Part shown: piece by piece, positions 321 through 62,037 of the stretch
Position numbering within the stretch: position 1 is the stretch's first letter
Layout: every line of letters starts with the position of its first letter
Assembly (NCBI GenBank): GCA_028279595.1
Contig: JANQNK010000008.1
Location: 1 to 64,000, forward strand
Length of the DNA stretch: 64,000 bases
Reading direction: 5' to 3'
Source of the DNA: Thermoplasmatota archaeon
GTDB taxonomy: Archaea > Thermoplasmatota > JAKEGO01
The notes under the pieces: model-generated
Seen by the model: only the letters and a program-made list of their open reading frames with translations
Databases searched by the model: none
Told to the model about the DNA's origin: nothing
Program-made: the position numbers and the translations under genes

Positions 321-433
321 AACATCACTTCCTTTCAAGTGCGGTCCATTCGATGTCATCCCCGTTGGGATTCCATCACCAATGTTCCGATGAGGGTGAC
401 TTTATTAACCGATTTTTCAATTTCTGTTCCTGT

Positions 434-455: not shown

Positions 456-526
456 TTCGGATTCAGGTATTTCGAGACAAATGTTATACCATAGGGAGTA
501 CTCCTACGAATGGACCGGAGACAGAT

Positions 527-808
527 ATGAGGCAGCTCCTATGGTACCTTCTCGCCGGGACGCGGGGAGGGTACAACAGGATAAAGATAATCGAGCAGAT
601 ATGCGAGAGGCCCTACAATGCGCATCAGCTCGCGGAGAACCTCGAATTGGACTACCGGACGGTACGCCACCATCTGGACGTACTCACGAAGAACAACGTC
701 CTGGTCCGACCGGAAGGCAAGTCCTACGGTTCCATGTACTTCCTGTCGGGAACGATGGAGCAGAACATGGAGACCTTCGACGATATCAAGAGCAAGGTGA
801 GGACGTGA
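527..808 (+). CDS. ArsR-like winged-helix transcriptional regulator (archaeal LWYLLAGTRGG type)
   Basis: MRQLLWYLLAGTRGGYNRIKII...PYNAHQLAENLELDYRTVRHHLDVL; start moved from 353 to ATG 527 (GGAG upstream). Confidence 0.85.
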   Translation: MRQLLWYLLAGTRGGYNRIKIIEQICERPYNAHQLAENLELDYRTVRHHLDVLTKNNVLVRPEGKSYGSMYFLSGTMEQNMETFDDIKSKVRT

Positions 809-875
809 TTATGAAGAGATTATGGTATACACATAAATACGAATTCCAGCCAGATATTACATGGAGGTATCGCGC

Positions 876-1160
876 ATGGGTCTAGTTACGACCGTCACGA
901 TCGGCCTCGCCGTGATCGGTGCGATCATAGCCACGGGTCTTCTGATGCTCTACTTCCAGAGCTACAAGAGGGTCCGTGCTCCCTTCACCATGTCCCTGAT
1001 CTTCGTCGCCCTGTTCATGATGCTCCAGAACGTCCTGTTCGTCTATACCTTCATTACGAACATGGAGAGCCTCACGGACCTCGTCATGACCTACATGGTC
1101 GTGATAACGGCGTTCGGCGACTTCGCCCTCGCACTCCTGTTCCTGAACTCGAGGAAGTGA
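876..1160 (+). CDS. Small 3-TM membrane protein
   Basis: Three hydrophobic segments; GGAGGT RBS at 863-868 favours ATG 876. Confidence 0.8.
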   Translation: MGLVTTVTIGLAVIGAIIATGLLMLYFQSYKRVRAPFTMSLIFVALFMMLQNVLFVYTFITNMESLTDLVMTYMVVITAFGDFALALLFLNSRK

Positions 1161-1161
1161 A

Positions 1162-1554
1162 TCAGTCCGGTAGTTCGTACAACTCTATCTTCCTGCCCTC
1201 AGGGTCCAGTATCGACGCGAATGTACCCTGCTGGTAGACCTGTGGCTCCATCAGGATGACCACACCCTTCCCCCTCAGTTCCTCGACCAGGTCCTTTACG
1301 CCCTCGACCCGGAAATTGATCATGTAGCTCTCCTTGCTCGGGTCCATGTAATCGGTGTCCTCGGGCATCAGGGAGAATACGGAGTATGCGTCGACGCCCT
1401 TCTTGTCGTCCATGATCACAGTGGCATTGGTCTCGTCGAACTCGAGTCCGAGCATCTCCTCGTACCATTTCCTTGTTGCATCCGGGTCCTTCGACCTTAC
1501 GAAGACGCCGCCGATCCCTTTCACTTGTCCCATGTGGGGGTGGATGGGGTCCAT
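1162..1554 (-). CDS. VOC/glyoxalase family protein
   Basis: GIGGVF..SKDP...WY, YMINFRV, FASILDPEGRKIELYE; start could be 1533. Confidence 0.88.
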   Translation of the reverse strand: MDPIHPHMGQVKGIGGVFVRSKDPDATRKWYEEMLGLEFDETNATVIMDDKKGVDAYSVFSLMPEDTDYMDPSKESYMINFRVEGVKDLVEELRGKGVVILMEPQVYQQGTFASILDPEGRKIELYELPD

Positions 1555-1581
1555 CGATATCTATGCTTCGCCTGAAGCAAT

Positions 1582-1642
1582 GAGGGGGCCGGCCGTCAAA
1601 ATGTGATGACGACTGCGGGTGATGCGGCGGCCGTCCCCCCTC
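1582..1642. terminator. Imperfect GC-rich inverted repeat directly after the giant gene's stop codon
   Basis: GAGGGGGCCGGCCGTC (1582-1597) versus GGCGGCCGTCCCCCCTC (1626-1642). Confidence 0.35.
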
Positions 1643-4600
1643 TCATTCATCGTGATCGGCTATGGATATCTCCGGCGAGATGTCCTCTGATGAGGTCACA
1701 GCGGCCGGTCCCGTCTCGGGAACTGGAGCCTCGGTGAAAGGGGGTGGCGGCGGCGCCTGGACGGGAAGGTACTCGTTACAGGCGTGGCAGTAGTGCCGTC
1801 CGTACTCGGGATAGTATATCGGCTCCCGTCCGCAGGTCGGGCACGTGATCGCAGGGGGAACGTACTCCGCGACCGGTCCCGGTGGAGAATCGGATGGCGG
1901 ACCCACAGTGCCTGTACCGGCTGCCATTTCCGCGCCCTTACCATTTCTCTTCCTGAGGGCTACCACGGTCAGAACGACCAGTACCAGTGCGAGCACACCG
2001 ATGATGGCCATGAACGATATGCCGGAATCCTTGCTGTCCGATCTCACAGATGGCTCCTCGATGACGGTCACCGTTTCCGACACTTGTTCGGACCAGAGCC
2101 CGTTCTGCGCCTGGACGCGGAAATGGATGATGTGCGTCCCCACGGACAGCCTGTCCGCCTTGCAGTGGACGGTCTCGGCCTCGCCGAGGACCCCGAAGTC
2201 ACCGGAACTCCACTCGTATGCGACTATGACGCCGTTCTCGCCGTCCCCGCGGAACGTGAATGTCCCGAAGTCGATCGTTGTCTCCTCGGGTGAGACGGAC
2301 TCGAGGACGGCGACCGGCACCCTGTTGTCCACATGGACGGTCACAGAGTCTAGTTGCGAGATCAGTCCTTCGTCGTCGATGGCCCTGGCATAGAATGTGT
2401 AATATCCCTTCTCCAGTCCGGCAAGGGCGATGTTGGCGGACCATGTCTCAGTCCCACTGGCGACCGTCGGGAACGCGAAACCGCCCTGCTCCGAGGATAT
2501 CTCGATCCGGTCCAGGGTGTTCTCGGGATCTGATGCCGTTCCGGTCATCTCGATGGCGTTAGCGAACGGACCGTCGCCGCTGTAGGGTAGCGAGATCGAG
2601 ATGGAGGGCCTGCGGAGGTCGGTGTTGTTGATGAACAGGTCGATGTACTCCGTCTCCGTGCCTCCCTCGTCGTCGACCGCCCTGACGGCGATGGTTATCA
2701 CTCCATCGGTATGTGCCGTTGTGTTCCAGAGGTAGCTCCAGTCGGACCAGTCGCCGTAGTCGTCGGTGCATTGCTCCCATGTTTCCCCGCCGATCCGTAT
2801 GGTGACGTCCTCCACGATTCCATCCACGTCCTCCGCGGTCCCGACGATCTCGATCAAGCCCTCGACGTTCTGTCCGTAGATCAGGTTCGTGAACTCGACG
2901 TCGGGCTCCTCGTTCGGGACGATCTGGATCACTTCCAGCCTGTAGTCCGTGTAGTTGACGAACGGGTCGTTGACACCGTCGTCGATGATGGCGTAAAGGT
3001 AGTATTTCCCTTCGGGGACGTCGGTCACGTCCCAGTCATATTCGTCAACGCCGTCCTCGCCGATCCCGGATACGATCTCCGCCTCCTCGGTCTCGTTTCC
3101 GTCACCGTACTCGGTGTTCGTGTCCCTGTAGAATGATATCGTGGCATTGTCGTCAGGGTCGTGGTCGGACCATTCGATCGTGAAGATGTTATCATCCTCG
3201 AGGTCGATCTCGTCCTTCCCGTCCATCAGCACGGTGAATCCGAGGGTGGGTGTTACGTTAACGATCGAGACGTTGAGCTCCCATATCCTGGACGCCTGAC
3301 CCCGTGCGTCGGTCGCCCTGACGTGGACCCGGTGGAATCCGAGACCGTACTGGCGCGTCCTCCAGTGAGCCTCGAAGGACCAGTTGTTCCAGGCAACCTT
3401 GGTCATCTGGAGCTCCAGGACCTCGTCGAGCTCGGGGTCGTCGATGGAACACTCGATGGTGTCGATCTCGTCGTCCTCGTCGATGACGTATCCGGCAATG
3501 GTCACATTGCCGCGCACATCCTCCTTCTCGCCCGGATCCGTGTAGGTCACCAGGGGCCTGAAGTTCTCGTTCTCGATCGTGATGTTGATGTAGGAGGTGT
3601 TGGAGAAATCACCGTTCGAGCTCGCTGACTTGGCGTGGACCGTGTAGTTCCCGTCCTCGTACTCCGAGGAGTTCCACGGGAACTCCCATTCGGCGTATGG
3701 ATCGCCCGAACTGGTATCATCGGCGTCCATCCAGTCGCCGGAGACAGGGTCCTCTCCGACGGGCATTATGGCTATCCTGACACCGTCGATCTCGTCGGTC
3801 CAGTCCTCGTCCTCGGCAGTACCCCTCATGGTATGGTGGCCCGATATCTCGTCACCGTCCTCGGGCCTCTCGACGTCGATCACCGGCAGGTCCTGGTAGA
3901 TGACGATGGCGTCGTGCACGTCGACCTCCGACCATTCATCGCCGTCATTGGCCCGTGCGTGGATCGTGTAGTTGCCCTCCTCCTCCTCGGAGGCGTTCCA
4001 GTCTATCCTCCATTGGTCCCAGTCCCCGTCATCGGATGTGTCCTCGGCCTCGACCCAATCTCCCGGACCGGGGGTCTGGCCCTCCTCCATGATGGCGACC
4101 TCGACGGTCGTGACGTTGTCCCTGGAATCGGGGTCGCTCGCCCGGCCTCGGACCCTTATGTCCTCGTCGACCACTTCACCGTCGTCGGGGTTCGTGATCC
4201 TGACGTCGGGCCTCTCGTTCAGGTAGAGCTCGATGATCTCCGTGAGCGGACCGGCCATGTCGACGCTCACGGTCTCTTCTGTGTCGCCGACAGCGACCGT
4301 GATATCAGTGACGTTCTGGGTCGCGCTGTCGCTTCCGTTGTAGATACGGTCGGTCACGAGTACTGGTTCGATCCATCCGGACGAGTTGGTCCGATCGTCA
4401 CTGCCTCCCCATCTGGTTGTGGAATATACGGCCTGGCCTTCGTCCTCGATGAGGACGTGGGCTCCGTCCACGGGATCGTCATACTGGTCGATCGCACCGA
4501 CGTGAAGGTGGTTCCTTACGATGACACGCGCAGGCGATGTGCAATCGACGTCGCTGGCTCCGAAGGTGGCGTTGATCGTGATGATCGTGCTCGTCGAGGT

Positions 4601-33721: not shown

Positions 33722-34441
33722 ATGGACGAAGTCGCCGCGACGGTCCACTGCGACGCAGAGGGAATCCTCGTCGAGAGGAGCAACAGGTTCCTGGCCATCG
33801 TTGACATCGATATCGAAGGAGATGTCTCGAGGGAGAAGGCCCACGTACATGACCCGGGAAGATTGCTGGAACTGCTATATCCCGGGAACAGACTGTTGTT
33901 GAGGAAGGCGGACAACCCGGACAGGAAGACCGGATGGGACGTCATTGCCGCGCGTTACGAGGATGAATGGATACTGATCAATTCCGTTTTCCATAGAGGG
34001 ATCGCCGACTGGCTTCTATCGAAGGACGACAACCCGTTCGGGCGATTGGAGGGTCTGACCCCCGAGGTGACCGTGGGCCACAGCAGGCTCGATTTCATGG
34101 CCGAGGATAGTGAAGGGACTCCGCTTGGTATCGAGGTCAAGGGATGCACCCTGGCCGTCGACGGGACGGCCCTTTTCCCCGACGCACCGACCGAACGCGG
34201 GAGGAAGCACGTGGAGACCCTCATCGGCCTCGTTCGGGGCGGGAAACGGGCGGGTTTGCTGATACTGGTATTCAGACCGGACCCAATGGAGTTCGCTCCC
34301 AAGGACGATACCGATCCCAGGTTCGCGGAAGCGTTCTGGAGGGCCGTCGATCTAGGTGTCGAGGTCCACCCCGTCAAGTTCGGATTCGATGGAGGGAGGG
34401 TCCGGTATCTGGGCGAGATCCCGGTTGCCGACCACCCGTGA
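33722..34441 (+). CDS. sfsA: DNA/RNA nuclease SfsA
   Basis: NRF, HVHDPGRL, SRLDF, IEVKGCTL, FPDAPTERGRKH. Confidence 0.92.
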   Translation: MDEVAATVHCDAEGILVERSNRFLAIVDIDIEGDVSREKAHVHDPGRLLELLYPGNRLLLRKADNPDRKTGWDVIAARYEDEWILINSVFHRGIADWLLSKDDNPFGRLEGLTPEVTVGHSRLDFMAEDSEGTPLGIEVKGCTLAVDGTALFPDAPTERGRKHVETLIGLVRGGKRAGLLILVFRPDPMEFAPKDDTDPRFAEAFWRAVDLGVEVHPVKFGFDGGRVRYLGEIPVADHP

Positions 34442-34517
34442 TAAAACTGGTGACACGCGTCGATGATGCCCAGGCACACCAACGAGCACCGTCTTCGATT
34501 TACCTGAGTGACAATTC

Positions 34518-34559
34518 GGCGCCACGCCGGCCATGAGGTGGTACGCCGGCGTGTGCGCC
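34518..34559. terminator. Strong hairpin between convergent genes
   Basis: GGCGC-CACGCCGGC ... GCCGGCGTG-T-GCGCC, a 14-bp stem with one bulge. Confidence 0.45.
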
Positions 34560-34605
34560 TTCCCGCTGCAAGCCCCCGTGAAAGCGAGGCGAGATCTGGG
34601 GGGGT

Positions 34606-37600
34606 CTATCTCTTTGAGCGAGCGGGTGCCCTTCCGGGCTTTCCGACCTGAGGTGTCTCGGTAACGCGGTCGGAGTTCATGATGCCTAGGTAATCGTTCG
34701 TCAGCCTTGTACCGCCACCCCTCACCGTGACGACGACACCCTTCTCCCGCAGCGCCCTGAGGTGGTAGGCGACGGCGGGCTGCGTTACTTTCATCTTCTT
34801 CGCGAGCTTTGCCTGGGTTATCCCGGGGTTGGAACCGACGATCTCGACAATCCTGACCTCCGCTCCCCTGAGCTGGAACTCGGGGACCTTGTATCCGAAC
34901 GGATAGAAGCGCTTGCGGAAGCCGTCGTTCCTGCTCTTGATGAAGCCGGCCGTCTCCAGCACCCGGAGGTGATAGCCGGCGGAACCGTTCGGCAGTGCCA
35001 GCTGCTTCTTGATGAGGCTGAAGTGCGCTCCGGGATTCTCGAGGATGTACTCGACGAGCTTCCCGCGGGTCTTCTGGTCCGTGATCTTCTTTGTCCTGAG
35101 CTTGGAGTAGAGCGGGAAGAGCATGGAGAGGAAGAGGTAGAACCCGACTCCGGTGAACGCGAAGGCCGTCAGGACCCCCGCAGCGGCGACGCCGGCTATC
35201 AATCCCTGTTCGTCCGAGTTCGGGGGCCGGAAGAAGGGCTTCGCGCCGTCGTCCTCGCCGTCATCATTGTCCACGTAGAGGACGACGCTGTCCTCGTCGG
35301 AGTGGTGGTATCCGTCGTACGATATCACAACGATGGTGTGGTTCCCGTCATCCAGGTCGGCGGTCTTGATCCTGTAGGTCCAGCTCGTCTTCCCATCGGC
35401 GTACTTCCAGGAACCGTTGTCGATCTTGACCTTGACCCACTGGATGATGCCGTTCGAGTCCCAGGCCGTTCCCGAGAGCTCGACCGTCCCGTTGACCTCG
35501 TCGCCTGTCTCGTGGGATGTTATCTCCACTGTGGGCTTCCTGTTGACAATGACCTTGCCCTTGACGGGGTCGCTCTTCACGTCCTCGTCATCGACGGTCC
35601 ACAGGTAGATGTCATGGGTACCCAGTGAGAGTCCGTCGGTCGTGAAGGTCGAGTTGGTGCCCTCGTAGAGCTCCTCGTCGATGCTCGAGGCCCACAGGTA
35701 CTTCGCGATTGAACCGTCGTCGACGCCGCCCGCCTTGAAGGTGACCTCGGCGCCGTAGAGGGCCGGGCTCGGGGATATCGACAGGATGACCGCGGATGGT
35801 TCACCGTTTATCGTCACGGTCCCTTCGACCTCGTCGCTCCAGGTCCCATCGGAGTCCTTGACCTTGAAGTAGATGGTGTGGGTGCCGTTCGACAGCTTCT
35901 TCGTCGAGAACACGAAGTGGGGTCCGTAGTAGAGGAGGCCGTCGATGCTCGAGCGCCAATGGTACTTGATCGTTCCCTCGGAACCGGTCCCGTTGAAGGT
36001 CACGTATTCGCCCTGGTCGGCCGACTCGGGCGAAATGCCCACGATCTCCGCCTCCGGCCTCTCGGTCTCGTTCTCGTCCTCGCTGCCGTTGACGTTGAGA
36101 TAGGTGTAGTAGTAGTCGCTCAGGGCGCCGTCGTCGTCCCTGACCTTGACCTTTATCGTGTGGTTCCCGTCAGAGAGCCCGGTCTCCTGGAAATGGTCGG
36201 ACTCGCCCTCGTAGAGCTCGCCATCCTTGAACGAGTACCAGAAGTACCAGACCACCTCGCCGTCCGGATCGGTGGCGTTCACGTGGAAGTACACCGTATC
36301 GTTCTCTTCCGCCGGGTCCGGTGTGATATACACATCGGTGATACTGGGTCCGACGTTCTTCGTACCGTTTATCGTGACATGGTCGTAGGCGTAGTCGCTT
36401 GCCAGCTCCTCATCATCGTAGACCTTGAGCTTGATGGAGTGGTTGCCGACGGACAGATCATCGGTGGTGAAATGGCTCTTGTTGCCTGCATACAGCTGGC
36501 CGTCCTTTGAAGAATACCAAACGTACCATATGATATCGCCGTCGGGATCGGACCCGCTTCCGTAGAAGGTCACTGCCTCACCTTCCTCCGCGTGGTCTGG
36601 ATCGATCTCGAGGATGGTCGCGTTCGGCTTCTGGTTCTCCGAGCCGTTCACGACCAGATGGGAGTATGCATAATCACTGTGTGCGTCGTCGTTGTCGTAG
36701 ACCTTCAGCTTGATCGTGTGGTTGCCGACGGACAGTTCACTGCATGTGAACGAGGTCTCGTTTCCCTCGTAGAGCTCTCCGTCCTTGGATGAATACCAGA
36801 CGAACCAGTCCACGTAGCCGTCGGGGTCCTGACCGCCTCCCTTGAAAGTGACGTTCTCGCCCTCCTCGGCCGGGTTTGGCGTGATGTCGAATATGGTGGC
36901 ATTGGGCCTCTGGTTCTCGTCGCCCTCGATGACGACATAGGATTGAGCGTAATCGCTGTGGGCATCGTCATCATCCCACACCTTGAGCTTGATGGTATGA
37001 TTTCCGATGGACAGGTCGTTCGTAGTGAACGAGCTCGAGTTTCCCTCGTGGATCCAGCCGTCGAAGGAGGAGTACCAGTCGTACCACACGACCTCACCGT
37101 CAGGATCGGTACCTTTGCCGTAGAAGGTGACGTTCTCGCCCTTCTCGGCGGGATTCGGATCGATCTCCAGGATCTCGGCCGTAGGGCTCTGGTTCTCAGT
37201 ACCGTTGATGACGAGGTGATCGTAGACGTAATCGCTCGTCGCGTTATCATCGTCCCTGACCTTGTGTTTGATCGTGTGATTCCCCGAGGACAGGTTGGTT
37301 GTCGAGAAATGGCTCTCGTTACCTTCGTAGAGCTCGCCATCGATGGACGAATGCCAGTAGTACCAGACGACCTCGCCGTCGGGATCGCTGGCATTGCTCG
37401 TGAATGTTATGGAATGGCTGTTGTTGGCCGGGTTCGGCGATATCCCGCCGATGTCGGCGATCGGTGCGTGGTTGCTGTCCTTTACCTTGAGTGTCTCGTG
37501 ATCGTACTCGCTCCAGGTGTGATTGTTGTCCATCACCCAGAACTTGATCTTGTGCTCCCCTATCGAAAGGTTCGAGTACGTTGTCGAGTTGGAGGATCCG

Positions 37601-38808
37601 TTGTAGAACACTCCGTCGATATCGGAGGCCCACCGGTACTTGATGATGGTGCCGTCCTCGTCCTCGCCGTAGCCTGTGAACGTCACATCATCGTCATCGA
37701 AGGCTGGTGCTGGTGATATCGATGAGATGTGGGCCGAAGGTGCCTTGTTTCCGGTGGATCCACCATCGGGTTCCATGAGTGGATACCGGTCCTCGTTGTT
37801 CCCTTCACCATCGATCTGGTACGCGGTATCGCCGATCCCGTCCTCGTCGGCGTCCGTACCTTCGTAATCGTCCCAGTAGTTGCCTTCCTCGCCGTCGTCC
37901 CAATCTAAGTTGTCATCGGAATTGGACACGCAGAGGGTCTGGGTCGAATTCGTATGATTGGTATCATTGCTTCCATAGAATTGGTTGTGATGGATGGTGA
38001 TGTTGTTGAAGCCGCCGCTCCCGATCTGGATGCACCATCCCCAGTGATCCGTGATGTTATTCCCGGTGATCAGCACGTGGTTCACTCCACCTGGCCAGCC
38101 GTAGAAGATTATTCCGAGATGGCTATCGGCGATGTAATTGTCGGTGATCTCGACGTCCCGGCAGTCGACCAACCTGATGCAGTTCTCTGGAGCACCTGTT
38201 ATCTCATTGCCATCTATCGTCAGGTTATGGGAATTCTTCCACTGGATCCCTGCTCCGAAGCTCGCAGTCCTGATGATGCATTCGCGCACTTCGGACCAGT
38301 TGGCGCACTGTGCCTTGATGGCATGGGAATTGATCCCCTCTATCAGGCAGTCCTGGATGAGGATCTCCTCAACATACCGCATACCGATGACCCCGTAGGA
38401 CCAGTGATGGTCGGAACCTGTGATGTTCATCTCCTTGATGACGACGTTGTAGCCATTGATCTCGATGGTGTCGACCCTGTACTCCTGGGAGTGGAGCCAG
38501 GTCTCACCCGTCCCATTCCCGATCAGGGATACCGAGTTGTTGACGTAGATGTTGCCGGAGTACTGTCCAGCGTATATCCGAATGGTATCCCAGTCACTGG
38601 ATGCGTTAAGGGCGTCCTGGATGTTGTCGTGATCTGCCCATGCCCCACCGTCGTCGTCCACGACGATCTCGTTGCCGGCGGAGGCCCCGGATGAGACCAG
38701 GTACAATGACGCCAAGAGGAGCGATACTATCGCCAGCATCCGGAGTCCTGCCGCCAGATTGATTTCCATTCTCGAACAATCGGGGATATTCCTACTTATC
38801 GAGCTCAT
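34606..38808 (-). CDS. Membrane-tethered transcription factor: beta-helix, 8 PKD-like repeats, Ig domain, TM, tandem winged-helix
   Basis: Signal peptide; GNYWDDY..DGIGD; W.SS.DG.LY.G repeats; TM; PLYS..RG..ENPGAHF..YHL..RFYP..SNPGITQ..YHL. Confidence 0.85.
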   Translation of the reverse strand: MSSISRNIPDCSRMEINLAAGLRMLAIVSLLLASLYLVSSGASAGNEIVVDDDGGAWADHDNIQDALNASSDWDTIRIYAGQYSGNIYVNNSVSLIGNGTGETWLHSQEYRVDTIEINGYNVVIKEMNITGSDHHWSYGVIGMRYVEEILIQDCLIEGINSHAIKAQCANWSEVRECIIRTASFGAGIQWKNSHNLTIDGNEITGAPENCIRLVDCRDVEITDNYIADSHLGIIFYGWPGGVNHVLITGNNITDHWGWCIQIGSGGFNNITIHHNQFYGSNDTNHTNSTQTLCVSNSDDNLDWDDGEEGNYWDDYEGTDADEDGIGDTAYQIDGEGNNEDRYPLMEPDGGSTGNKAPSAHISSISPAPAFDDDDVTFTGYGEDEDGTIIKYRWASDIDGVFYNGSSNSTTYSNLSIGEHKIKFWVMDNNHTWSEYDHETLKVKDSNHAPIADIGGISPNPANNSHSITFTSNASDPDGEVVWYYWHSSIDGELYEGNESHFSTTNLSSGNHTIKHKVRDDDNATSDYVYDHLVINGTENQSPTAEILEIDPNPAEKGENVTFYGKGTDPDGEVVWYDWYSSFDGWIHEGNSSSFTTNDLSIGNHTIKLKVWDDDDAHSDYAQSYVVIEGDENQRPNATIFDITPNPAEEGENVTFKGGGQDPDGYVDWFVWYSSKDGELYEGNETSFTCSELSVGNHTIKLKVYDNDDAHSDYAYSHLVVNGSENQKPNATILEIDPDHAEEGEAVTFYGSGSDPDGDIIWYVWYSSKDGQLYAGNKSHFTTDDLSVGNHSIKLKVYDDEELASDYAYDHVTINGTKNVGPSITDVYITPDPAEENDTVYFHVNATDPDGEVVWYFWYSFKDGELYEGESDHFQETGLSDGNHTIKVKVRDDDGALSDYYYTYLNVNGSEDENETERPEAEIVGISPESADQGEYVTFNGTGSEGTIKYHWRSSIDGLLYYGPHFVFSTKKLSNGTHTIYFKVKDSDGTWSDEVEGTVTINGEPSAVILSISPSPALYGAEVTFKAGGVDDGSIAKYLWASSIDEELYEGTNSTFTTDGLSLGTHDIYLWTVDDEDVKSDPVKGKVIVNRKPTVEITSHETGDEVNGTVELSGTAWDSNGIIQWVKVKIDNGSWKYADGKTSWTYRIKTADLDDGNHTIVVISYDGYHHSDEDSVVLYVDNDDGEDDGAKPFFRPPNSDEQGLIAGVAAAGVLTAFAFTGVGFYLFLSMLFPLYSKLRTKKITDQKTRGKLVEYILENPGAHFSLIKKQLALPNGSAGYHLRVLETAGFIKSRNDGFRKRFYPFGYKVPEFQLRGAEVRIVEIVGSNPGITQAKLAKKMKVTQPAVAYHLRALREKGVVVTVRGGGTRLTNDYLGIMNSDRVTETPQVGKPGRAPARSKR

Positions 38809-38850
38809 GATGATCCCTCGTTCCTTTCGTGGTTTTCATCCGGGAGGAGC

Positions 38851-38879
38851 ATATAAGTAAAGATTGGAACGAGTCTTTA
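38851..38879 (-). promoter_or_regulatory. TATA-adjacent dyad motif, copy 1
   Basis: TAAAGA-TTGGAACGAG-TCTTTA (38858-38879) abutting a TATA-like box. Confidence 0.6.
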
Positions 38880-38925
38880 TAACGTCGACCGAACGTGGAT
38901 CCATTGACTGGCTATTCCATCCAGA

Positions 38926-41900
38926 TCACTTACGGACCCGTGCGCGGAAGTCCTTTGTCACGAGGCATCCGTCCTTCCTTGACGTTCGGACTACACCCTT
39001 GGATTTCAATGATTTCAGGTGGTAGGAGACTGCTGGAGGTGTCACCTTCATCTTCTCCGCGAGCTTCCTCTGTGAAATCCCAGGATTCGATGCGATGACC
39101 CTGAGTATCTGCTTCTCCTTCCTCGTGAACTCCACCTCAGGCACGTCGTATCCATGTGGGTAGAACCTGCGATAGAAACCGTCAGTCTGGCTCTTGAGGT
39201 AGCCATTCCTCTCGAGTATGCGAAGGTGATGGCCGAGCGAACCGTTCGGAAGGGCCAGGTCCTTCTTGATCAACTGGTAGTGGGCCCCTGGATTGTCGGC
39301 GAGGTAATCGACGATCTCGCCCCTTGTCTCATTCTTCATGACATCCTTGCCCTTGACCCTCGAATAGAGAGGAAGGAACGCGAACAACGCGTATCTACCC
39401 CGGTCCGACGATGCGACCGCACCGAAGGCCAGGACAGCTATCAGTGCCATGGCGCCTATTGCCGGGGTGGACGTAAGAGGGATGTTCAGACCGGTGTCCT
39501 CGTCCCGGTCCGTCGGTTCGACCTCATCCGGATCCTCATCCTCCGCCTCGACCGTGAGGTATAGCTTCCCGAGATCGGAGTAATGGTTCCCGTCATAGCT
39601 CCTGATATTGATCTGGTAGGTCTCGTTCGAGAGTCCCGATGTGTTCCATTTGAACGACCACATTGTCGTACCCGTAGCGGTCTTCCATGACCCGTCGCCT
39701 ATCTGGTACTCGATCCTCTGGATCGACCCATCCTCGTCAGATGATGTCCCGGATACGGTGACGGTTCCATTAACGGTCGACCAGGACGATGGTGAATTGA
39801 TAGTGACCGAGGGTCGTACGTTTACAGTCACCGTCGTCGTCACAGTATCGCTCCATACTCCATTCCCATCCTGGACCTTCAGGGATATCGTGTGTGTCCC
39901 ATTCGACAGGTCGTCAGTATAAAGCGTGCCGTCGGTTCCGTTGTACAGCTCGCCATCGATGCTCGATGTCCAGACATACCTGGTGATCTCGACGTCGTCC
40001 ACGCAGTTCGGTGTGAAAGTAACATTGTTACCCTCTGCAATGATCGACTTGGAGACGGTCCAGATCCGTGCAACAGGTATGCCGTTCACAGTGACATTGG
40101 CGGTCTGCCGTTCACCCCATAATCCTTCATTGTCGATGGAATGGAGCGTGATCTCATGTGTCCCGTTCGATAGGGACGATGTTGACCAGACCTGCGAGGT
40201 TCCGTTGAATAATTCCCCATCGATTGATGATGTCCACACAAGAAGAGCCACCGAGCCATCGAAATCGAATCCGGTGCCGTTGAATGTGATCTCGTCACCC
40301 TCGTCGACGCTTGAGGGGTGGACGCTCTTGATCGTGGCGACCGGTGCGATGTTCTCTCCGGATGAGGACTCCTCGTTCCATGGTTCCATCAGAGGATACG
40401 GGTCCTTGACCTGGCCAGAAGAACCGTTTCCGGTACCGTTGTCGCCTCCCGAGGAATCGGATGCTATGTAATATGGAGTATCCCCGATCCCGTCATCATC
40501 ATCGTCCTCTCCATCATAGTCGGACCAGTAGTTGCCAGCGGACCCATTATGCCAAATTGCAGAACCATACTCATCATATACTTGCGTATTGACCCGATTG
40601 TCGATGAAATCATTGTGGTGGATGGTTATGGTTCCCCCGAGCTTTCGTTCTATGTAGATGCCGCCATGGTTCTCGACGAACCTGTTGAACTTGATCGTGT
40701 GGTTGAACGCATCATCGATCTCGATGCCATATTGGCCAGAGCCATTGACAACACCACATTTCTTGATTGTATTGTTGCGTATGACAATATTATCGGAGCT
40801 TCTTGAAAAAATACCAATTCGGTCGGTCCTCGTTATTAGATTTCCAACGATATGGATATTATCTGCTTCCCTGAGGTAAACGCTGTTCTGGTTCGTTCTT
40901 ATCTCGTTGCCCCAAATTTTAATTGAATATCCTTCGTGGACCTCGATAGGTACGTCAGAATTCACCAGATAGCAATCATGGATCTGACTGTTCCCTGACC
41001 TATCGAAATAGATACCAACGTCGTCTTTTGATGTGATATCGCATGAGGTGATATTTATCTCCATTGAGTTCCTTATCATGAGTCCAGTCGAGTTCGAATT
41101 GAGATCACAATCCTCAACAACCACATCGTTCGACATGACCATATGGATGGAATAATCGCACTTCGTTGTCGTAACGTTCTTTATTATACTATCATTGGTG
41201 AATCCGATAAGTATTGGATACGTCGTATCGCGGAGTGTCTGATCTCTGATCGTGGCTTTGGTACAATTGGCGATGATGATCTGGCCTCCTCCAATTGGAA
41301 CCGTGACATTCTCCTGGTTCTTGATGTAGAGGATGGGGTTCCCGTCGATCGTGTTCGATTGATCGATGTAATGGGATGACCACTCGTCCGCTTCCGACCA
41401 AGAAGGATAATAGGAGGGGTATGTCCGAATGAAAAGGCATCCGTTGTAGAGGGTATTGTTCCGGAACGTCAGGTCGACTGTATCCTGGATGAATATGCTA
41501 AGACCTGGCGATGTGATCGTGTTTCCATGGTAGGACGAATGGTCCGAGCTTGCGATATCAATGCCGAAAACGCTTGCCCATATCGTATTGTTGATGATGA
41601 GGTTGTTGATATTACTGTGGTGATAAATACCGACACGATTCGATTTAATCTCATTTCTAATGATACTCGTTTCAATGTTCCTGTAGGACCAGATCCCGTT
41701 GCTGCTGGCATCGAGAAGTGAGTTGGATATCGTAATATTGTCATTCCATCGTAAATAGATACCAGTAGAAACAGTATCCATTGAATCAGACCCGTTCGGG
41801 CCTCCACCACCTATGACCTTTCCAACACATTGAACATTGTCTACAGTACTGTTGTCGCAGTTCTGTAACCTTATTCCAGTACGAACCTCATGATCGCAAG

Positions 41901-44900
41901 TGATGTTCGTGATGGATACGTAACTGGACCATTCGACAGATATTCCTTCGTCCTTGTGAGACGACAGGTGGATCCCGTCGAGGAATGAGTTGTCACAACT
42001 TTCCAAACGTAGGCCAGTAGAGTCGCCGTTGCTGCCTGTTACGGAAATGTCACTGAGGTTGATCTGGACTCCGATGACCTGGACGATGGGACCCCGGTCA
42101 CCATAGATTTCAGAGGTCGTTCCATTCCCGACTATTGTCACTGCGATTGTGATGTTGATGTATTCGTGATATTCACCGTCGTATATACGGATCTCATCAC
42201 CATCCTGAGCTGCGTCCAGTGCGTCTCCGATCGATGAGAAATCCGCACCAGCCCAATCATCATCGACTATCAAGGTCACGGGGTCGCGGGTCCCATTCCT
42301 TCTCATAAGAGGACGAAGGTCCACAGACCCGGATGAGCCATTGAATGTATATGGGGTGTCACCTATTCCATTGCCATCGCTGTCCACTCCAGAATAATCA
42401 CCCCAATAGTTGCCGTAGAAACCGTCGTCCCAGTAATTGTCATCACTTTCGACGAGTCCCTGCTCGACGCCATCATCGGTGTTGTCGATCGCGTTGTTGT
42501 GGTGTAGAATGTTATCTATTGAGTCCTGATCGATCGTGATCGCGAATTCGTCATTATCCATAATGTAATTGTATACCACTGTGATCCCAGATGTCTCTTC
42601 GAGCACGATTCCGCCACCTGAATTTCCGATTATTCTGCATCTCTCGATAGTTCCATTCGTGACTCCTTCGCAGACCAATCCATCGCCCGAGTTCCTTCTG
42701 ATGGTAGAGTCCCTGAATTTTGCCCGTTGAGAGTTCGATACGATGATCGCATCGGAACCGCTATCCCTGATCGTGGAATTCGCGAACCTGAACGCTATGC
42801 AATCGACTATGGAGAGACCGACTCCCAGGTTGTTTTCGATCACACATTCATCGATGCGCAATCGTGCTACATCTTCCGCATAGAGACCCGACCCGTTCGA
42901 GGAAGAGCCGCCGCCCTGGATCGATAGACCACTGATGATCGTATCATCGGACATCACTGATAATGTAATCCCGGACCCACCTGCATCGACGGTAGTTCCA
43001 CTCGAACCATTTCCTACGATCGTCAATGGCAGGTTCACAACTATCTTCTCGTTGTAGGTCCCCGAATAAACCAGGATCATGTCATTCGATGTCGCGTTTT
43101 GAAGTGCTGATGAGATCGTGGTATGGGATGCCCAGGATCCTGGGTCATCATCGACAATCAGTAGGGACCTGTCGGTCAGAGGGTACCTGTCCCAGATGGT
43201 GATGTTCTCATCGTTATAAATGTAATACGGGGACTCGCCAACTCCATCGTCATCCGTGTCATAACCTTGATAATCGGACCACCAGTTCCCCTCGGACCCA
43301 TCATCGTATTGGTTGTTCAATGTTCCATTCGGATTGCGCCCTTGGTCGGAGATCTGGGGAGAAAGGCCGTTTTCGAGGAAGGTGTTGTGATGGATCAGAT
43401 TGCTATCGCCATCGACGTCAATGCCATATCCTGTATTGTCCTGGAACAGGCACCAGGATATGATGTTGTCGTCACCATTGACAAAGACCGGAGTACCATC
43501 ATTTCCAATGAACCTCGAATTGCGGATCGAGCTGTTCGATTTCAATTTGATACCGACACGTGAATTGTTACTGAAGGTCGAATTCAAGATCTCCAAAAAG
43601 TCGTTGTTTCCCATTTCATTGCCCCACCCTTCAGAATTATTGTGTATATGAACATCATGCAGTACGACCGAATCGAGATTGCGGATAAAGAGCGGATCCT
43701 CTTTGCAATATGAGATGGTCATGTTTTCCATCGTGAGATTTCCTCCTCCGTATTCCCAAGCGAATCCTGGACCCTCTGCCGAGGTCAATATGGTATCCCG
43801 AATGGTGAAATCATCGCAACGATCAACCTGGATCGCTCCGCGCCAATCTCCAGATTCGTTGCAAATGAATCTGCTGTTCGCTACAGTGATTCGACCACAA
43901 CCATCGAATTCTATCCCGTAAAAGATGTCGTACGTCCACCCATCCAGGAGGAGGTCCTCACAGTAGCTGAAGCGAATGGTATCTGAATAATTGAACAACG
44001 AGATATTGGACATCTGAAGACCTTCGACCTTATAGAAATCCAACCACCTAGTATCTGTGAAGGTGAGGTTTTCGACGACCACGTTCACCGAATCATCGAT
44101 GCTCAGTGAATCGCCAGGTCCACTGATCCTGCAGTTCGAAACGGAAGCGTCGTACAGATCGCTAAGTTTCAGTCCAAAATAGTCCATACGATAGATTTCA
44201 CAATTCTCGATCGTCACGTTGTCACAGTATTCTATCCATGCACCGGTCATCTGATCTGAGAAGGAACCGTTAGATAGGGTAACATCTGAACTGAAGTATG
44301 CCTGCAATCCGGATTTCGCATCATTAGTGGTCAGACCATCGACCATCACGCTAGTACAATTGATAATAATGACTTGACCAGCATTGGAAGGTACGATGAT
44401 ATCGCTCTGGTCCGTATACCTGTGGATGTCCTTCCCGTTCGTGGTGCAATCGACCACGGTGGTAGTGCCCGCGTTCGTGGCGTTCGAAACGCGTTCGTAG
44501 AAACCACAATCGAGGAAAGAACAATTTGAGACGTATACGTTCGTGGACGATGAGCTGAGATAGATCCCGCCCCCATTGAATTCGTCGAATATACAGTCCT
44601 CTATCGATACGTTGTCCGACCATAGAATGCTGATACCTCGAGCATTACTGCCCGATCCGTTCAAGCGCAGTCCTTCGACACGAACATCGTCACCCTCGAC
44701 AGCGATCAGAGGGGAACTGCCATCGAGTTCGAGGAATGATGAGGAACCATTGCCGATGATCGTCAACTCTTGATCGACCACGACGGCACCGCCATAGACT
44801 GAGTCCATTGAGTACGTTCCAGAATATACAAGGATCGTATCACCGGCGGAACTGTCATCTACAGCGTCGGCCAGATTGTCGTGATCCGCCCAATCCCCGT

Positions 44901-45060
44901 CGTCATCATCGACGACCCACGTCTTCGCTCCGACCTCCGGCACCAGGAGTAGGGAGACTACCAACACGAGGCCGAGGATGAATAACACAATAGGACGATG
45001 AAACATCCTCGACCCCAGGAACATTCGGGAAACCATATCGCTCTTCCCTTTCCATATCAT
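38926..45060 (-). CDS. Membrane-tethered transcription factor: 3 beta-helix modules, 2 PKD-like repeats, Ig domain, TM, tandem winged-helix
   Basis: Signal peptide; three VDDD...GN.W.DY..D.DG.G..PY units; TM; PLYS..RG..DNPGAHY..HHL..RFYP..SNPGISQ..YHL. Confidence 0.85.
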   Translation of the reverse strand: MIWKGKSDMVSRMFLGSRMFHRPIVLFILGLVLVVSLLLVPEVGAKTWVVDDDDGDWADHDNLADAVDDSSAGDTILVYSGTYSMDSVYGGAVVVDQELTIIGNGSSSFLELDGSSPLIAVEGDDVRVEGLRLNGSGSNARGISILWSDNVSIEDCIFDEFNGGGIYLSSSSTNVYVSNCSFLDCGFYERVSNATNAGTTTVVDCTTNGKDIHRYTDQSDIIVPSNAGQVIIINCTSVMVDGLTTNDAKSGLQAYFSSDVTLSNGSFSDQMTGAWIEYCDNVTIENCEIYRMDYFGLKLSDLYDASVSNCRISGPGDSLSIDDSVNVVVENLTFTDTRWLDFYKVEGLQMSNISLFNYSDTIRFSYCEDLLLDGWTYDIFYGIEFDGCGRITVANSRFICNESGDWRGAIQVDRCDDFTIRDTILTSAEGPGFAWEYGGGNLTMENMTISYCKEDPLFIRNLDSVVLHDVHIHNNSEGWGNEMGNNDFLEILNSTFSNNSRVGIKLKSNSSIRNSRFIGNDGTPVFVNGDDNIISWCLFQDNTGYGIDVDGDSNLIHHNTFLENGLSPQISDQGRNPNGTLNNQYDDGSEGNWWSDYQGYDTDDDGVGESPYYIYNDENITIWDRYPLTDRSLLIVDDDPGSWASHTTISSALQNATSNDMILVYSGTYNEKIVVNLPLTIVGNGSSGTTVDAGGSGITLSVMSDDTIISGLSIQGGGSSSNGSGLYAEDVARLRIDECVIENNLGVGLSIVDCIAFRFANSTIRDSGSDAIIVSNSQRAKFRDSTIRRNSGDGLVCEGVTNGTIERCRIIGNSGGGIVLEETSGITVVYNYIMDNDEFAITIDQDSIDNILHHNNAIDNTDDGVEQGLVESDDNYWDDGFYGNYWGDYSGVDSDGNGIGDTPYTFNGSSGSVDLRPLMRRNGTRDPVTLIVDDDWAGADFSSIGDALDAAQDGDEIRIYDGEYHEYINITIAVTIVGNGTTSEIYGDRGPIVQVIGVQINLSDISVTGSNGDSTGLRLESCDNSFLDGIHLSSHKDEGISVEWSSYVSITNITCDHEVRTGIRLQNCDNSTVDNVQCVGKVIGGGGPNGSDSMDTVSTGIYLRWNDNITISNSLLDASSNGIWSYRNIETSIIRNEIKSNRVGIYHHSNINNLIINNTIWASVFGIDIASSDHSSYHGNTITSPGLSIFIQDTVDLTFRNNTLYNGCLFIRTYPSYYPSWSEADEWSSHYIDQSNTIDGNPILYIKNQENVTVPIGGGQIIIANCTKATIRDQTLRDTTYPILIGFTNDSIIKNVTTTKCDYSIHMVMSNDVVVEDCDLNSNSTGLMIRNSMEINITSCDITSKDDVGIYFDRSGNSQIHDCYLVNSDVPIEVHEGYSIKIWGNEIRTNQNSVYLREADNIHIVGNLITRTDRIGIFSRSSDNIVIRNNTIKKCGVVNGSGQYGIEIDDAFNHTIKFNRFVENHGGIYIERKLGGTITIHHNDFIDNRVNTQVYDEYGSAIWHNGSAGNYWSDYDGEDDDDDGIGDTPYYIASDSSGGDNGTGNGSSGQVKDPYPLMEPWNEESSSGENIAPVATIKSVHPSSVDEGDEITFNGTGFDFDGSVALLVWTSSIDGELFNGTSQVWSTSSLSNGTHEITLHSIDNEGLWGERQTANVTVNGIPVARIWTVSKSIIAEGNNVTFTPNCVDDVEITRYVWTSSIDGELYNGTDGTLYTDDLSNGTHTISLKVQDGNGVWSDTVTTTVTVNVRPSVTINSPSSWSTVNGTVTVSGTSSDEDGSIQRIEYQIGDGSWKTATGTTMWSFKWNTSGLSNETYQINIRSYDGNHYSDLGKLYLTVEAEDEDPDEVEPTDRDEDTGLNIPLTSTPAIGAMALIAVLAFGAVASSDRGRYALFAFLPLYSRVKGKDVMKNETRGEIVDYLADNPGAHYQLIKKDLALPNGSLGHHLRILERNGYLKSQTDGFYRRFYPHGYDVPEVEFTRKEKQILRVIASNPGISQRKLAEKMKVTPPAVSYHLKSLKSKGVVRTSRKDGCLVTKDFRARVRK

Positions 45061-45103
45061 TTGATCCCCTCATCGTCTTCTTCGTGTTATTACCCTTTTG
45101 AGG

Positions 45104-45132
45104 TTATATATGCAGATTGGAACACTTCTTTA
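45104..45132 (-). promoter_or_regulatory. TATA-adjacent dyad motif, copy 2
   Basis: AGATTGGAAC-ACT-TCTTTA (45114-45132) abutting TATATAA on the minus strand. Confidence 0.6.
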
Positions 45133-45262
45133 ATTATCGATCGTCCTGCCTGGATTGGGATTTGGAAAGACGGCCTCCAGATTACCGATCGTTCGATCAC
45201 TCGTTCGGACATACGGGCCGATCCGCATGACTGGCTCTTGCGCTGTCAGGTCGATCTCACGT

Positions 45263-46852
45263 TCAATTCCGGCGTTTTCTCACCAGTACCACGACGGCGA
45301 TGGCCGCGACGACGAACACCATCTCCATCCCGGGGCTGGACCCGCCGCCATCTCCGCCGGCCTTCGGTTCCGTGGTCACATCGATGTATCCTTCATCGTA
45401 CGAGCTGAACCAGGGATCGTAGTTGATCATCCTCAAACCGGCAGCGTTCATCTCGTAGTTGGTGGTGTCGCCGATAGACGACAGCGGGACCACGATGACG
45501 ACCTCATCGTCTTCAGGGATAGCGTAGGAGATCGTGTCTATATCATCGGCGACCTGGTCCATGATCATCGCGGTATCCATCATCGCTGTTGCCACGTAGA
45601 CAGCGTTGTCGAAGTCCGTCAGGTCCTTGGTCCCGGACGGGAACATGTAGACCATGAAGGCATTGAGGTCGTCGCCGGAGCTGACGTTCATGGTCCCGTC
45701 GATCTCGATCTCCAGGAACAGATGCTCGCCGGACGTCAGAGCGGTGAACTGGACGATATCGATCTCCGGATAGCCTCCGACGACCTTGTCATCCTCGTCC
45801 ATCACATCGTCGAGGTCGTCGTCCTCCGCGTATATCTCTTCGGCGATATGGACCATGATATCATCGGATGTCACGAGATCGTCCTCATCCGTCGTTGTCA
45901 ATGTTATGACGAAGGACCCGATGTCATGACTGAGCCAAACTGGATTCTCCGATGTCGACTCCTCCGTGATCCCGTCCGATGCGTTGTAGTCCCATGACCA
46001 GGTGAGCTCCTTCTTCGAATAGATCGTGCAATAGTCCCGCAGCCTCAGATTCTCACCCGGTTCGCCCAGGACGTCCCCGGCTATCGGACCGATCAGCGCG
46101 ACACTCGAGTTGATGAAGACGTTGTCGTCGCAGTATTGGTCCATCTCAAGGGGTCCATCGACGTTGCCGGCGACCTCGTTGAGGATGAACATGTTGTCAT
46201 CGGACAGCGCCATGGATATGCCGTAGGCGCCGTTCGACGAGATGTTGTTTCCGCTTATGTTGTTGTTGTCAGAGAGCGAGATGTACAACCCATCGTCGGA
46301 GTGGTTGATGCACACGTTGTCGACCACAGTGTTGTCGTCGGAGTCGAAGATGTAGATCGCAGTATAGTCGCCCTCCATGATCGTATTCCCGGTGACGACA
46401 CAGTTGAACACGTTGTCCAGCCTGATGCCGTAATCGTTGTCGACGAGGAGGTTGTCCGTGATCGTGGTGTCGTTGGCCTCGCAGTCGATTCCCTTTCCGA
46501 GATAGGGAGCACCCGTCACCATGAAGTCGCTGAACGTGCAGCCCGGAGCCGTTATCGTCACCACGTTACCGAAGCCGGTCCCGATGTCAAGGATTGTCTG
46601 GTCCGAACCGTTCCCCATCAGGTACAGCTGTTTATCGATCTCGACCTCTTCGGAATATGAACCGTTGAAGACGAGGATGGTATCTCCGGCAGTGGCGTTC
46701 TCGATCGCACTCTGTATGGTATTGTAGTCTGCCCATGGTCCGTCATCGTCGTCGACGAAGATCGTCTCTCCAGTCGATGATCCCGATACCAGGACGATCG
46801 CCAGAACGGTCAACAGCACGGCTGGTATCAACTTCGAATATCCCCTCTTCAT
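45263..46852 (-). CDS. Cell-surface beta-helix/PKD protein with PGF-CTERM-like anchor
   Basis: Signal peptide, VDDDDGPW cap, C-terminal SPGMEMVFVVAAIAVVVLVRKRRN. Confidence 0.8.
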   Translation of the reverse strand: MKRGYSKLIPAVLLTVLAIVLVSGSSTGETIFVDDDDGPWADYNTIQSAIENATAGDTILVFNGSYSEEVEIDKQLYLMGNGSDQTILDIGTGFGNVVTITAPGCTFSDFMVTGAPYLGKGIDCEANDTTITDNLLVDNDYGIRLDNVFNCVVTGNTIMEGDYTAIYIFDSDDNTVVDNVCINHSDDGLYISLSDNNNISGNNISSNGAYGISMALSDDNMFILNEVAGNVDGPLEMDQYCDDNVFINSSVALIGPIAGDVLGEPGENLRLRDYCTIYSKKELTWSWDYNASDGITEESTSENPVWLSHDIGSFVITLTTTDEDDLVTSDDIMVHIAEEIYAEDDDLDDVMDEDDKVVGGYPEIDIVQFTALTSGEHLFLEIEIDGTMNVSSGDDLNAFMVYMFPSGTKDLTDFDNAVYVATAMMDTAMIMDQVADDIDTISYAIPEDDEVVIVVPLSSIGDTTNYEMNAAGLRMINYDPWFSSYDEGYIDVTTEPKAGGDGGGSSPGMEMVFVVAAIAVVVLVRKRRN

Positions 46853-46886
46853 AGTGGTCACCGGTTTGACCAACGAGGTAGGGATA

Positions 46887-60804: not shown

Positions 60805-62037
60805 TCAGATGTCCTCGTCGTCCGACTCGTCCGGAGCGATGAGGTAGCAGTGGGTCTGCCGGCCCTCCTTGATCACGTCGATGAGACCCTCGTGGTACAT
60901 TGCCCGCACGTTGAGGTTCACCAGCTGCTTGCGCGCGCCAAGGGCCACGCAGATCTCCTTCTGGGATATGCCGGGATTATCTGCGATCAGATTGAGGATC
61001 CTGAGCTGGAACGTGTCCATCTCGATGGACTCCTCGACCTTCATGCCTATCGGGTAGAACCGGCGGAACCGGCCGTCCATCACGGACTTGACCAGCTTCT
61101 CCCGTTCGAGTACCTTGACGTGATAGGCGAAAAGGCCGTTCTTCAGACCCAGCTTCCGCATGATGCCGGAGTAGTGATCGCCGGGATTCGCGATGATGTA
61201 ACCGTGGATCTTACCTCGGATGTAATTGTTCAGGACCGTTCGGCCGGTGACCTTCGCGTATAGCAGGCCGAAGGCCGAGAAGACCAGATAGATGCCGGAC
61301 TGGGAAAGGGCCAGCACGACGAGGAACGAGATGAGGCCAGCAAGCCAGTAGTAGTACGACGGCACGGATGTCACGGTCTCCCTGCCCGGTTTCGACGATG
61401 CTACCCTGATGTTCACCTGCTGGGTGGTGACACCGTCAGTGGCTAGGATGGTCACATTGCTGCCTCCGAGCTCCGTCGTGTCCACGAAGAATGCGAACTT
61501 CGACGTCCCGGCGGCCTCGGTCCATTCGCCGTCCTCGACCCTGAAACTGACCGAAACGACACCTCGGTCGTCGGTGGCCTCGCCCTCGACCATCACAACG
61601 CTGTCGGCCGGGATGACCTCGGACGTGACGGTGATCTCGGGGGGTGTGGCCGGCGTCTCGGCCGAGACGACGTTCGAGTACGAGAATGCGTGGGAATAGC
61701 CCTCGGCCGATATCATGAAGTGGTAGGTCGCGCCCTCGTCGAGTCCTGAGATGGTCTTGGAGGTCAGTCCGGTGCCTACCACACCGCTCACATACGTGCT
61801 CCAGACCCTTGTAGGGACCATGAGCTCGGAGACGTCCGAATAGTGTATGATGGTCTGGTTCAGCTCGGGGGACGCCTCCTGTGTCCACGTTATGCGCACG
61901 CTCTCGCTCCCGAGGACCTCGATGCCCGTGATCTCGGGGGCGGGCGGTGCGGGTCCCTCCTGGCCGGTAGCGTCACCGGTGAGGTAGAAAGAGGCGATGA
62001 TCACGACCAATATTGCCAGGATACCGACGGCTCGCAC
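60805..62037 (-). CDS. Membrane-tethered transcription factor: FN3-like domain, Ig domain, TM, tandem winged-helix
   Basis: Signal peptide; ITW...GLDEGATYHF..S; TM; LYA..RG..ANPGDHY..YH..RFYP..DNPGISQ. Confidence 0.82.
   Translation of the reverse strand: MRAVGILAILVVIIASFYLTGDATGQEGPAPPAPEITGIEVLGSESVRITWTQEASPELNQTIIHYSDVSELMVPTRVWSTYVSGVVGTGLTSKTISGLDEGATYHFMISAEGYSHAFSYSNVVSAETPATPPEITVTSEVIPADSVVMVEGEATDDRGVVSVSFRVEDGEWTEAAGTSKFAFFVDTTELGGSNVTILATDGVTTQQVNIRVASSKPGRETVTSVPSYYYWLAGLISFLVVLALSQSGIYLVFSAFGLLYAKVTGRTVLNNYIRGKIHGYIIANPGDHYSGIMRKLGLKNGLFAYHVKVLEREKLVKSVMDGRFRRFYPIGMKVEESIEMDTFQLRILNLIADNPGISQKEICVALGARKQLVNLNVRAMYHEGLIDVIKEGRQTHCYLIAPDESDDEDI

Follow-up and report, generated by a model that had tools for sequence, protein, structure and literature searches.

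In the one-component regulators ToxR and CadC, an OmpR-type winged helix is located at the N-terminus, and a cleaved signal peptide is lacking. The archaeal regulators ArnR and ArnR1 combine an N-terminal helix-turn-helix (HTH) with C-terminal membrane helices and have no large ectodomain. ArnR and ArnR1 of Sulfolobus acidocaldarius are membrane-bound transcription factors that control surface structures (PMC6396743). The general class of transmembrane transcription regulators (TTRs) was defined and censused by Demey et al. in 2023, and 1,384 archaeal TTRs were counted at 4 ± 2 per genome (PMC10269533). Here we analyse a 64,000-nucleotide stretch of DNA from an uncultured marine Thermoplasmatota archaeon (contig JANQNK010000008.1, positions 1–64,000; hereafter the window), in which two adjacent genes on the reverse strand encode the giant surface proteins P0001 and P0002, each ending in a double winged-helix tail. 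As judged from their sequences, the two proteins represent a real, conserved variant of membrane-bound transcription regulators that is apparently undescribed.

P0001 (1400 residues; window 34606–38808) and P0002 (2044 residues; window 38926–45060) are encoded by uninterrupted open reading frames (ORFs) without an internal stop codon, and all features of both genes described below lie on the reverse strand. P0001 consists of a signal peptide, one NosD-like β-helix, approximately eight PKD repeats, a Big_7 domain, one membrane span and the double winged-helix tail, as assigned from the ORF, Pfam matches and hydrophobicity. In a Kyte-Doolittle scan, residues 1–45 (38674–38808) are signal-peptide-like, with a basic n-region, a hydrophobic core (residues 14–45) and small residues before the NEIVV sequence. 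The ectodomain (residues 46–1200; 35209–38673) contains the β-helix (residues 118–317), the PKD array (Pfam E-value 3e-34), the Big_7 domain (residues 1092–1161) and an acidic linker. It is followed by the membrane span with the juxtamembrane PLYS[KR] motif (residues 1201–1236; 35101–35208), winged helix 1 (residues 1246–1307; 34888–35073), which matches Pfam family PF24266 (HTH_HVO_0163_N), and the HTH_24/MarR_2-like winged helix 2 (residues 1313–1371; 34696–34872; HTH_24 match at residues 1318–1359).

P0002 follows the same plan with a different set of outer modules. A signal peptide precedes three to four NosD-like β-helix modules, two PKD-like units, a Big_7 domain, one span and the double winged-helix tail. 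Pfam matches in the ectodomain (residues 47–1859; 39484–44922) comprise nine Beta_helix stretches (E-value 3e-87), PKD_4 (residues 1662–1746) and Big_7 (residues 1750–1818). After the span (residues 1860–1886) come DRGRY and the juxtamembrane motif PLYSR, up to residue 1900 (39361–39483), and the tail contains winged helix 1 (PF24266; residues 1910–1974; 39139–39333) and the HTH_24/MarR/ArsR-like winged helix 2 (residues 1979–2031; 38968–39126; HTH_24 match at residues 1980–2025). P0001 and P0002 are 44% identical across their final ~490 residues, which cover the stalk, span and tail, and differ in the number of outer modules.

An earlier sequence-only reading of the window had proposed for these ORFs a signal peptide, a NosD-like β-helix, a PKD stalk, a hydrophobic span and a basic tail with two winged HTH units, and each element was recovered in the ORF coordinates, Pfam matches and hydrophobicity scan. 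The motifs that it had listed (PLYS, RG, NPGAH, HL, RFYP, NPGI[TS]Q and YHL) are all present and conserved. Its combination of a β-helix with a PKD/Ig-like stalk describes P0001 well but fits P0002 only in part, as P0002 is built chiefly from three to four β-helix modules and has a short PKD/Big_7 stalk. The NosD model TIGR04247 requires a single unit above 300 bits; P0001 scores 87 bits, and P0002 reaches 310 bits only as a sum over its nine stretches. By these scores, the β-helices are likened to NosD in fold only. The G+C content of the ectodomain-coding part of P0002 (39484–44922) is 0.489, whereas the window as a whole has 0.584 and the tail of the same gene 0.557; the difference could reflect the Asn/Ile/Ser-rich composition of the ectodomain or its recent exchange.

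Each protein contains two hydrophobic segments in the Kyte-Doolittle scan, the N-terminal signal-peptide-like segment and a second one immediately before the tail (residues 1201–1234 in P0001 and 1860–1886 in P0002). The ectodomains are acidic, with 211 (P0001) and 263 (P0002) aspartate and glutamate residues and only 62 and 95 lysine and arginine residues, and the tails (final 170 residues) are basic, with 33 lysine and arginine residues against 12–16 aspartate and glutamate residues. The P0001 ectodomain contains 46 N-x-S/T sequons, compared with 13.0 ± 3.3 in composition-preserving shuffles (maximum 25; 2000 shuffles), and the P0002 ectodomain contains 58, compared with 28.8 ± 4.7 (maximum 47; 2000 shuffles). 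The proposed sequon richness of the ectodomains thus exceeds every one of the shuffles in both proteins. NGS/NGT sites exist in the tail, too. In P0001, the span and the juxtamembrane stretch fuse into 34 hydrophobic residues, and in P0002 DRGRY stands between the span and a hydrophobic stretch of ~10 residues with PLYSR at its end. A conserved T-E-x-G-[KR]-Y motif divides the normal span from the ~10-residue stretch in most family members. In an AlphaFold model based on an alignment of 12 tails, a membrane helix leads into a short juxtamembrane helix and then into two winged helices of canonical form, for which the predicted local distance difference test (pLDDT) values exceed 90. Because the distribution of charge, the position of the sequons and the shortness of the hydrophobic stretch agree, both proteins are most likely oriented N-out/C-in (type I) with a single span and the double winged helix inside the cell, as had been claimed.

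The tail is evidently a regulator-family module that has been taken up by surface proteins. Both tails match PF24266 with 62–67 bits (cut-off 31) and HTH_24 with 49–59 bits (cut-off 21.9), so the tandem domains of the HVO_0163 type lie above the curated Pfam cut-offs and the kinship with archaeal two-HTH regulators that had been claimed for the C-terminus holds. A profile of the 12 tails matches PDB 5duk, a 77-residue 'putative DNA binding protein', at winged helix 1 (E-value 2e-12) and MarR-, ArsR-, Lrp- and ZitR-type regulators at winged helix 2. Both recognition helices bear the pattern S/T-x-x-x-V-x-Y/H-H-L-x-x-L, which we take to be ArsR-like. Close soluble relatives of 172–173 residues, which contain both domains without a span, occur in this genome, in a Thorarchaeota metagenome-assembled genome (MAG) and in Methanothrix. 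The regulator ancestry of the tail is read from these profile matches, the helix pattern and the soluble two-domain relatives, and the soluble family of ~172-residue two-winged-helix proteins is its evident source. One soluble relative, P0162 (173 residues; contig C18, 170686–171459, reverse strand), has a size of 172–173 residues that is kept in many archaea.

Across 149 diverged tails, two regions are near-invariant. The first runs from the span's cytoplasmic end through the juxtamembrane stretch (T-E-x-G-[KR]-Y ... P-L-Y-[ST]-[RK]). The second is winged helix 1, with R-G-x-I, N-P-G-x-H-Y, N-G-x-L-A-Y-H-L-x-x-L-E and the wing sequence D-G-x-Y-[KR]-R-F-Y-P. Conservation is lower in winged helix 2, chiefly where its recognition helix starts.

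In correction of the sequence-only reading, the pair is not a singular case: this genome (2.29 Mb in 21 contigs, 86% complete) encodes 12 proteins of the same build, ranging from 359 to 2285 residues, in addition to two soluble relatives, and a tail match (E-value ≤ 1e-10) occurs in 245 of the 301 sampled genomes of the phylum. An exhaustive HMMER search of cluster representatives with the final 195 residues of P0002 returned 6411 representatives at an E-value below 1e-3 and 2353 below 1e-10. Nearly all of the best 150 matches are located at the C-terminus of proteins of 200–2000 residues and begin within the membrane span. Five complete chromosomes contain 26, 15, 33, 2 and 2 tail matches, of which ~19, 11, 17, 1 and 1 are of the membrane type (matches covering the span region, counted manually). 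Each of the 80 loci found in named records belongs to an uncultured MAG whose label is Thermoplasmata, Methanomassiliicoccales, Thermoplasmatota, 'Candidatus Proteinoplasmatales SG8-5' or Marine Group III. The NCBI label for such proteins is only 'right-handed parallel beta-helix repeat-containing protein'. Many of the matching forms of 200–280 residues were considered as minimal family members and rejected, as they look like gene fragments at contig ends.

PF24266 and HTH_24 are both present in all 57 full-length homologues scanned, and the ectodomains vary. Among these 57 homologues, NosD/Beta_helix domains are found in 14, PKD, FG-GAP and He_PIG domains in 12 each, CARDB in 11, Big_9 in nine, and Big_7 and NPCBM_assoc in eight each. 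As judged from these matches, P0001 and P0002 belong to a large modular family in which an exchangeable outer part is joined to a conserved cassette of span, juxtamembrane motif and double winged helix.

Gene order and promoter sequences bear on what the tail might do. Directly upstream of P0002 on the same strand, a 536-residue NosD-like β-helix surface protein (45263–46873, reverse strand) is encoded that has a plain C-terminal membrane anchor and lacks the winged-helix tail. Only a five-residue basic tail follows its anchor, and the protein is 29% identical to the β-helix modules of P0002. Because this neighbour is plainly anchored, anchoring does not require winged helices, and the winged-helix tail serves as more than an anchor. 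A subfamily of ~340 residues with a small Ig-like ectodomain is encoded directly upstream, and on the same strand, of genes for an SBP_bac_5 binding protein and an OppB-like permease. This order is found at 10 or more of the 80 loci and with at least three unrelated ectodomain types (L045, positions 185–4377; L047, L054, L068, L074, L082, L083 and others). The adjoining SBP_bac_5 proteins have 955–977 residues and C-terminal Big_1 domains. The gap between the ~340-residue member and the SBP_bac_5 gene (222–390 bp) bears a promoter, and a block common to three ectodomain groups reads ACAAAA ... ACAAAT[CT]T ... TATA. With the subfamily placed upstream of peptide ABC-transporter operons, the genes are arranged as a local regulator and its target are.

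The promoters of the two giant genes share an element. GTTCCAATCT is followed by the TATA-like sequence TTACTTATAT ~45 nt ahead of the ATG of gene 1 (38851–38870, reverse strand) and by the TATA-like sequence GCATATATAA ahead of gene 2 (45104–45123, reverse strand). CCAATCT with a TATA-like box within 7 nt occurs eight times in the 2.29 Mb, at window positions 38861–38867 and 45114–45120 and at C10:9652, C18:60770, C18:66064, C11:177807, C5:6069 and C19:81053. Five of the eight occurrences precede the five closest β-helix paralogues, and the others precede an 835-residue secreted protein with Ig domains, a 96-residue secreted protein adjoining another paralogue, and a probable ribosomal protein gene, which was judged by eye from its N-terminus. 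This distribution points to a co-regulated set of surface proteins.

Further family members lie near and far in the genome. A third member in the window (~410 residues; 60805–62037, reverse strand) consists of a signal peptide, a small ectodomain, a span, PF24266 and HTH_24. On contig C18, a second tandem pair of giant genes (1819 and ~1726 residues; 55259–66073, reverse strand) has near-identical N-termini and the same promoter element; this pair is a recent tandem duplication.

On balance, we favour the reading that P0001 and P0002 are a type-I variant of transmembrane transcription regulators, and from their sequences we infer DNA binding, a signal, targets and tethered action as follows. 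Both would be single-pass type-I surface glycoproteins whose cytoplasmic tail is a tandem winged-helix DNA-binding module derived from a soluble archaeal regulator family. An extracellular polymer, a surface or a partner protein would bind or cluster the ectodomain, and this event would alter the contact of the tail with promoter DNA close to the membrane. The protein would remain in the membrane and most likely act while tethered, as ToxR, CadC and ArnR do. Genes for surface proteins or for uptake are the probable targets, possibly among them those of the regulators themselves.

Several observations weigh against the regulator reading. The tails score 41–54 bits with the ArsR/SmtB model NF033788 (NCBIfam), below its cut-off of 55, and are by these scores fold-and-motif relatives of ArsR/SmtB rather than members. 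A fold search with the tail finds Rpc34, TFIIIC, PF0095 and MarR, but equally ScpB, SelB and ESCRT-II, tandem winged-helix proteins whose partner is protein or RNA; the fold search does not distinguish such binding from DNA binding and by itself does not decide the function. The near-invariance of winged helix 1, recognition helix and wing included, is easier to square with a single shared partner or site than with a multitude of private operators. CCAATCT was not found upstream of the homologues in two related genomes and was rejected as a conserved operator; the element has no dyad and may be an inherited promoter sequence or an unusual transcription factor B recognition element (BRE). For the conserved block ahead of the transporter genes, the archaeal BRE/TATA pattern is roughly as good a fit as an operator, and the block may be no more than BRE and TATA.

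The near-invariance of winged helix 1 among paralogues argues against a private operator for each receptor read through that domain. The same property, shared by the juxtamembrane motif over all ectodomain types and genomes, is what an alternative function of the tail as a common docking module would predict. Such a module could tie surface proteins to the nucleoid through sequence-indifferent DNA binding or could engage one conserved cytoplasmic protein, as the winged helices of ScpB and ESCRT-II do. The presence of up to ~19 membrane-type copies per chromosome and of protein-binding tandem winged helices among the structural neighbours also agrees with docking. The sequence relatives of the tail, however, are regulator families and not ScpB or ESCRT-II. 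Where its recognition helix starts, winged helix 2 varies in the manner of specificity-determining positions, the transporter-linked subfamily is ordered like a local regulator, and a plain anchor is enough for the neighbouring 536-residue β-helix protein. A docking function is unlikely in view of these points. Both views would be reconciled if winged helix 1 could read a shared promoter-proximal element and winged helix 2 added specificity.

Regulated intramembrane proteolysis offers another route from the surface to DNA. By the logic of Notch and SREBP, which the sequence-only reading had invoked, a ligand would trigger shedding of the ectodomain, a rhomboid- or presenilin-type protease would cut within the span, and the free double winged helix would act as a soluble regulator. 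A genome search for such proteases, which had been proposed, found a rhomboid (C18:385321–385764, reverse strand), a presenilin/signal peptide peptidase homologue (C11:44641–46173) and three M50 proteases. The spans of the family are rich in Gly, Ala and Ser, as are those of many intramembrane-protease substrates, and free soluble homologues of the tail exist, which are presumably regulators. These proteases, however, are near-universal in the phylum (the presenilin homologue is encoded in 257 of the 301 genomes), and the family has no protease gene linked to it; the gene for the rhomboid is located three genes away on the opposite strand. In the bacterial examples described in PMC10269533, partner proteins inhibit proteolysis. 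Nothing thus favours release of the tail, which appears distinctly improbable. Co-occurrence of the presenilin homologue and the tail module was considered as evidence and set aside as uninformative: co-absence of both is confined to one family of genomes and so represents one event. The sole rhomboid gene of the genome lies 2.4 kb past the end of the 2285-residue family member, probably by coincidence.

A 36,855-bp contig in the Logan assembly of a coral metagenome run covers window positions 34400–45300 with 0 differences; this second assembly probably derives from the same sample as the window DNA, and no RNA dataset containing the stretch is listed. The least tenable reading, in which the tail lies outside the cell (by two spans or an inverted topology) or the fusions are assembly chimeras, a concern already raised in the sequence-only reading, is close to refuted: the 34 merged hydrophobic residues of P0001, which could hint at a second span, are too few for two full spans, the T-E-x-G-[KR]-Y motif of most members sets off a mere ~10 residues from a normal span, the charge bias obeys the positive-inside rule, and the identical fusion type is seen in thousands of proteins as well as in the second assembly across both genes.

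Signal transduction in uncultured archaea is poorly known. The host lineages of the family live as heterotrophs in the sea and in sediment (Marine Group III, SG8-5 'Proteinoplasmatales' and MAGs labelled Methanomassiliicoccales), and the family may wire their cell surface straight to gene control. If the tails bind DNA, most signalling from envelope to genome in these organisms would run through one family, and the exchangeable ectodomains would reveal what the cells monitor externally. The transporter-linked subfamily offers a concrete candidate promoter. The family also bears on how a membrane-bound protein locates its DNA site and offers synthetic biology a naturally occurring collection of type-I receptor-regulator fusions.

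Among known systems, P0001 and P0002 fit the general class of TTRs. In line with how Demey et al. (2023) define the class, both proteins contain at least one region predicted to cross the membrane (one span before the tail, which is a helix in the AlphaFold model) together with a domain predicted to bind DNA in the same polypeptide (PF24266 and HTH_24). PMC10269533 does not mention Thermoplasmatota, the PF24266 and HTH_24 pair or giant ectodomains, and its census of 4 ± 2 TTRs per archaeal genome contrasts with the 12 members of this single family here. Like ToxR, TcpP and CadC, P0001 and P0002 are one-component, single-pass proteins with a cytoplasmic winged-helix domain, an extracytoplasmic domain and no kinase. 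Unlike in ToxR and CadC, the predicted DNA-binding part is C-terminal, doubled and of the ArsR/MarR type, and it is preceded by a signal peptide and by a glycosylated ectodomain that measures 1150–1800 residues. The N-terminal Trans_reg_C domain that characterizes ToxR and CadC is absent from the Pfam matches of both proteins. The two proteins thus fall outside the ToxR/CadC family. The sequence-only reading had not noted that a definition and a census of the general class already existed (PMC10269533). P0001 and P0002 resemble ArnR and ArnR1 in being read as archaeal membrane-bound transcription factors and differ from them in that their tails belong to the PF24266 family and ArnR and ArnR1 do not.

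The soluble PF24266 and HTH_24 proteins (HVO_0163 type; PDB 5duk; COG3398-like) contain the same double winged-helix module, but at ~172 residues they lack the signal peptide, ectodomain, span and PLYS motif. Outside subscription journals, the literature yielded no characterisation of these soluble proteins and only one acetylome table entry for HVO_0163. In the same literature, neither searches for COG3398, 5DUK and PF24266 nor searches by descriptive terms brought up a paper that describes the architecture, in agreement with the earlier statement that no characterised example was known.

Notch, SREBP and ATF6 are eukaryotic membrane-tethered factors that intramembrane proteolysis sets free. 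Notch is likewise of type I and combines a large glycosylated ectodomain with a cytoplasmic part that is related to transcription. P0001 and P0002 have no homology to Notch, SREBP or ATF6 and show no sign of cleavage, and because prokaryotic DNA can reach the membrane, release of the tail is not required. We advance only tentatively a wider picture, in which uncultured Thermoplasmatota, and possibly other archaea, display up to ~20 different surface glycoproteins per cell that share one near-identical DNA-binding cassette, and in which any of them, on touching a polymer, a surface or a nearby cell, would signal to a common promoter element, whether still in the membrane or with its tail released; such a system would be a prokaryotic counterpart of the Notch type with a built-in DNA binder. 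The hybrid two-component glycan sensors of Bacteroides thetaiotaomicron, present in 32 copies (PMC10269533), offer a parallel in a polymer-degrading organism, as they are also numerous paralogous membrane sensors with a built-in DNA-binding domain. They differ in their kinase and receiver domains and AraC-type HTH, whereas P0001 and P0002 have no phosphorelay.

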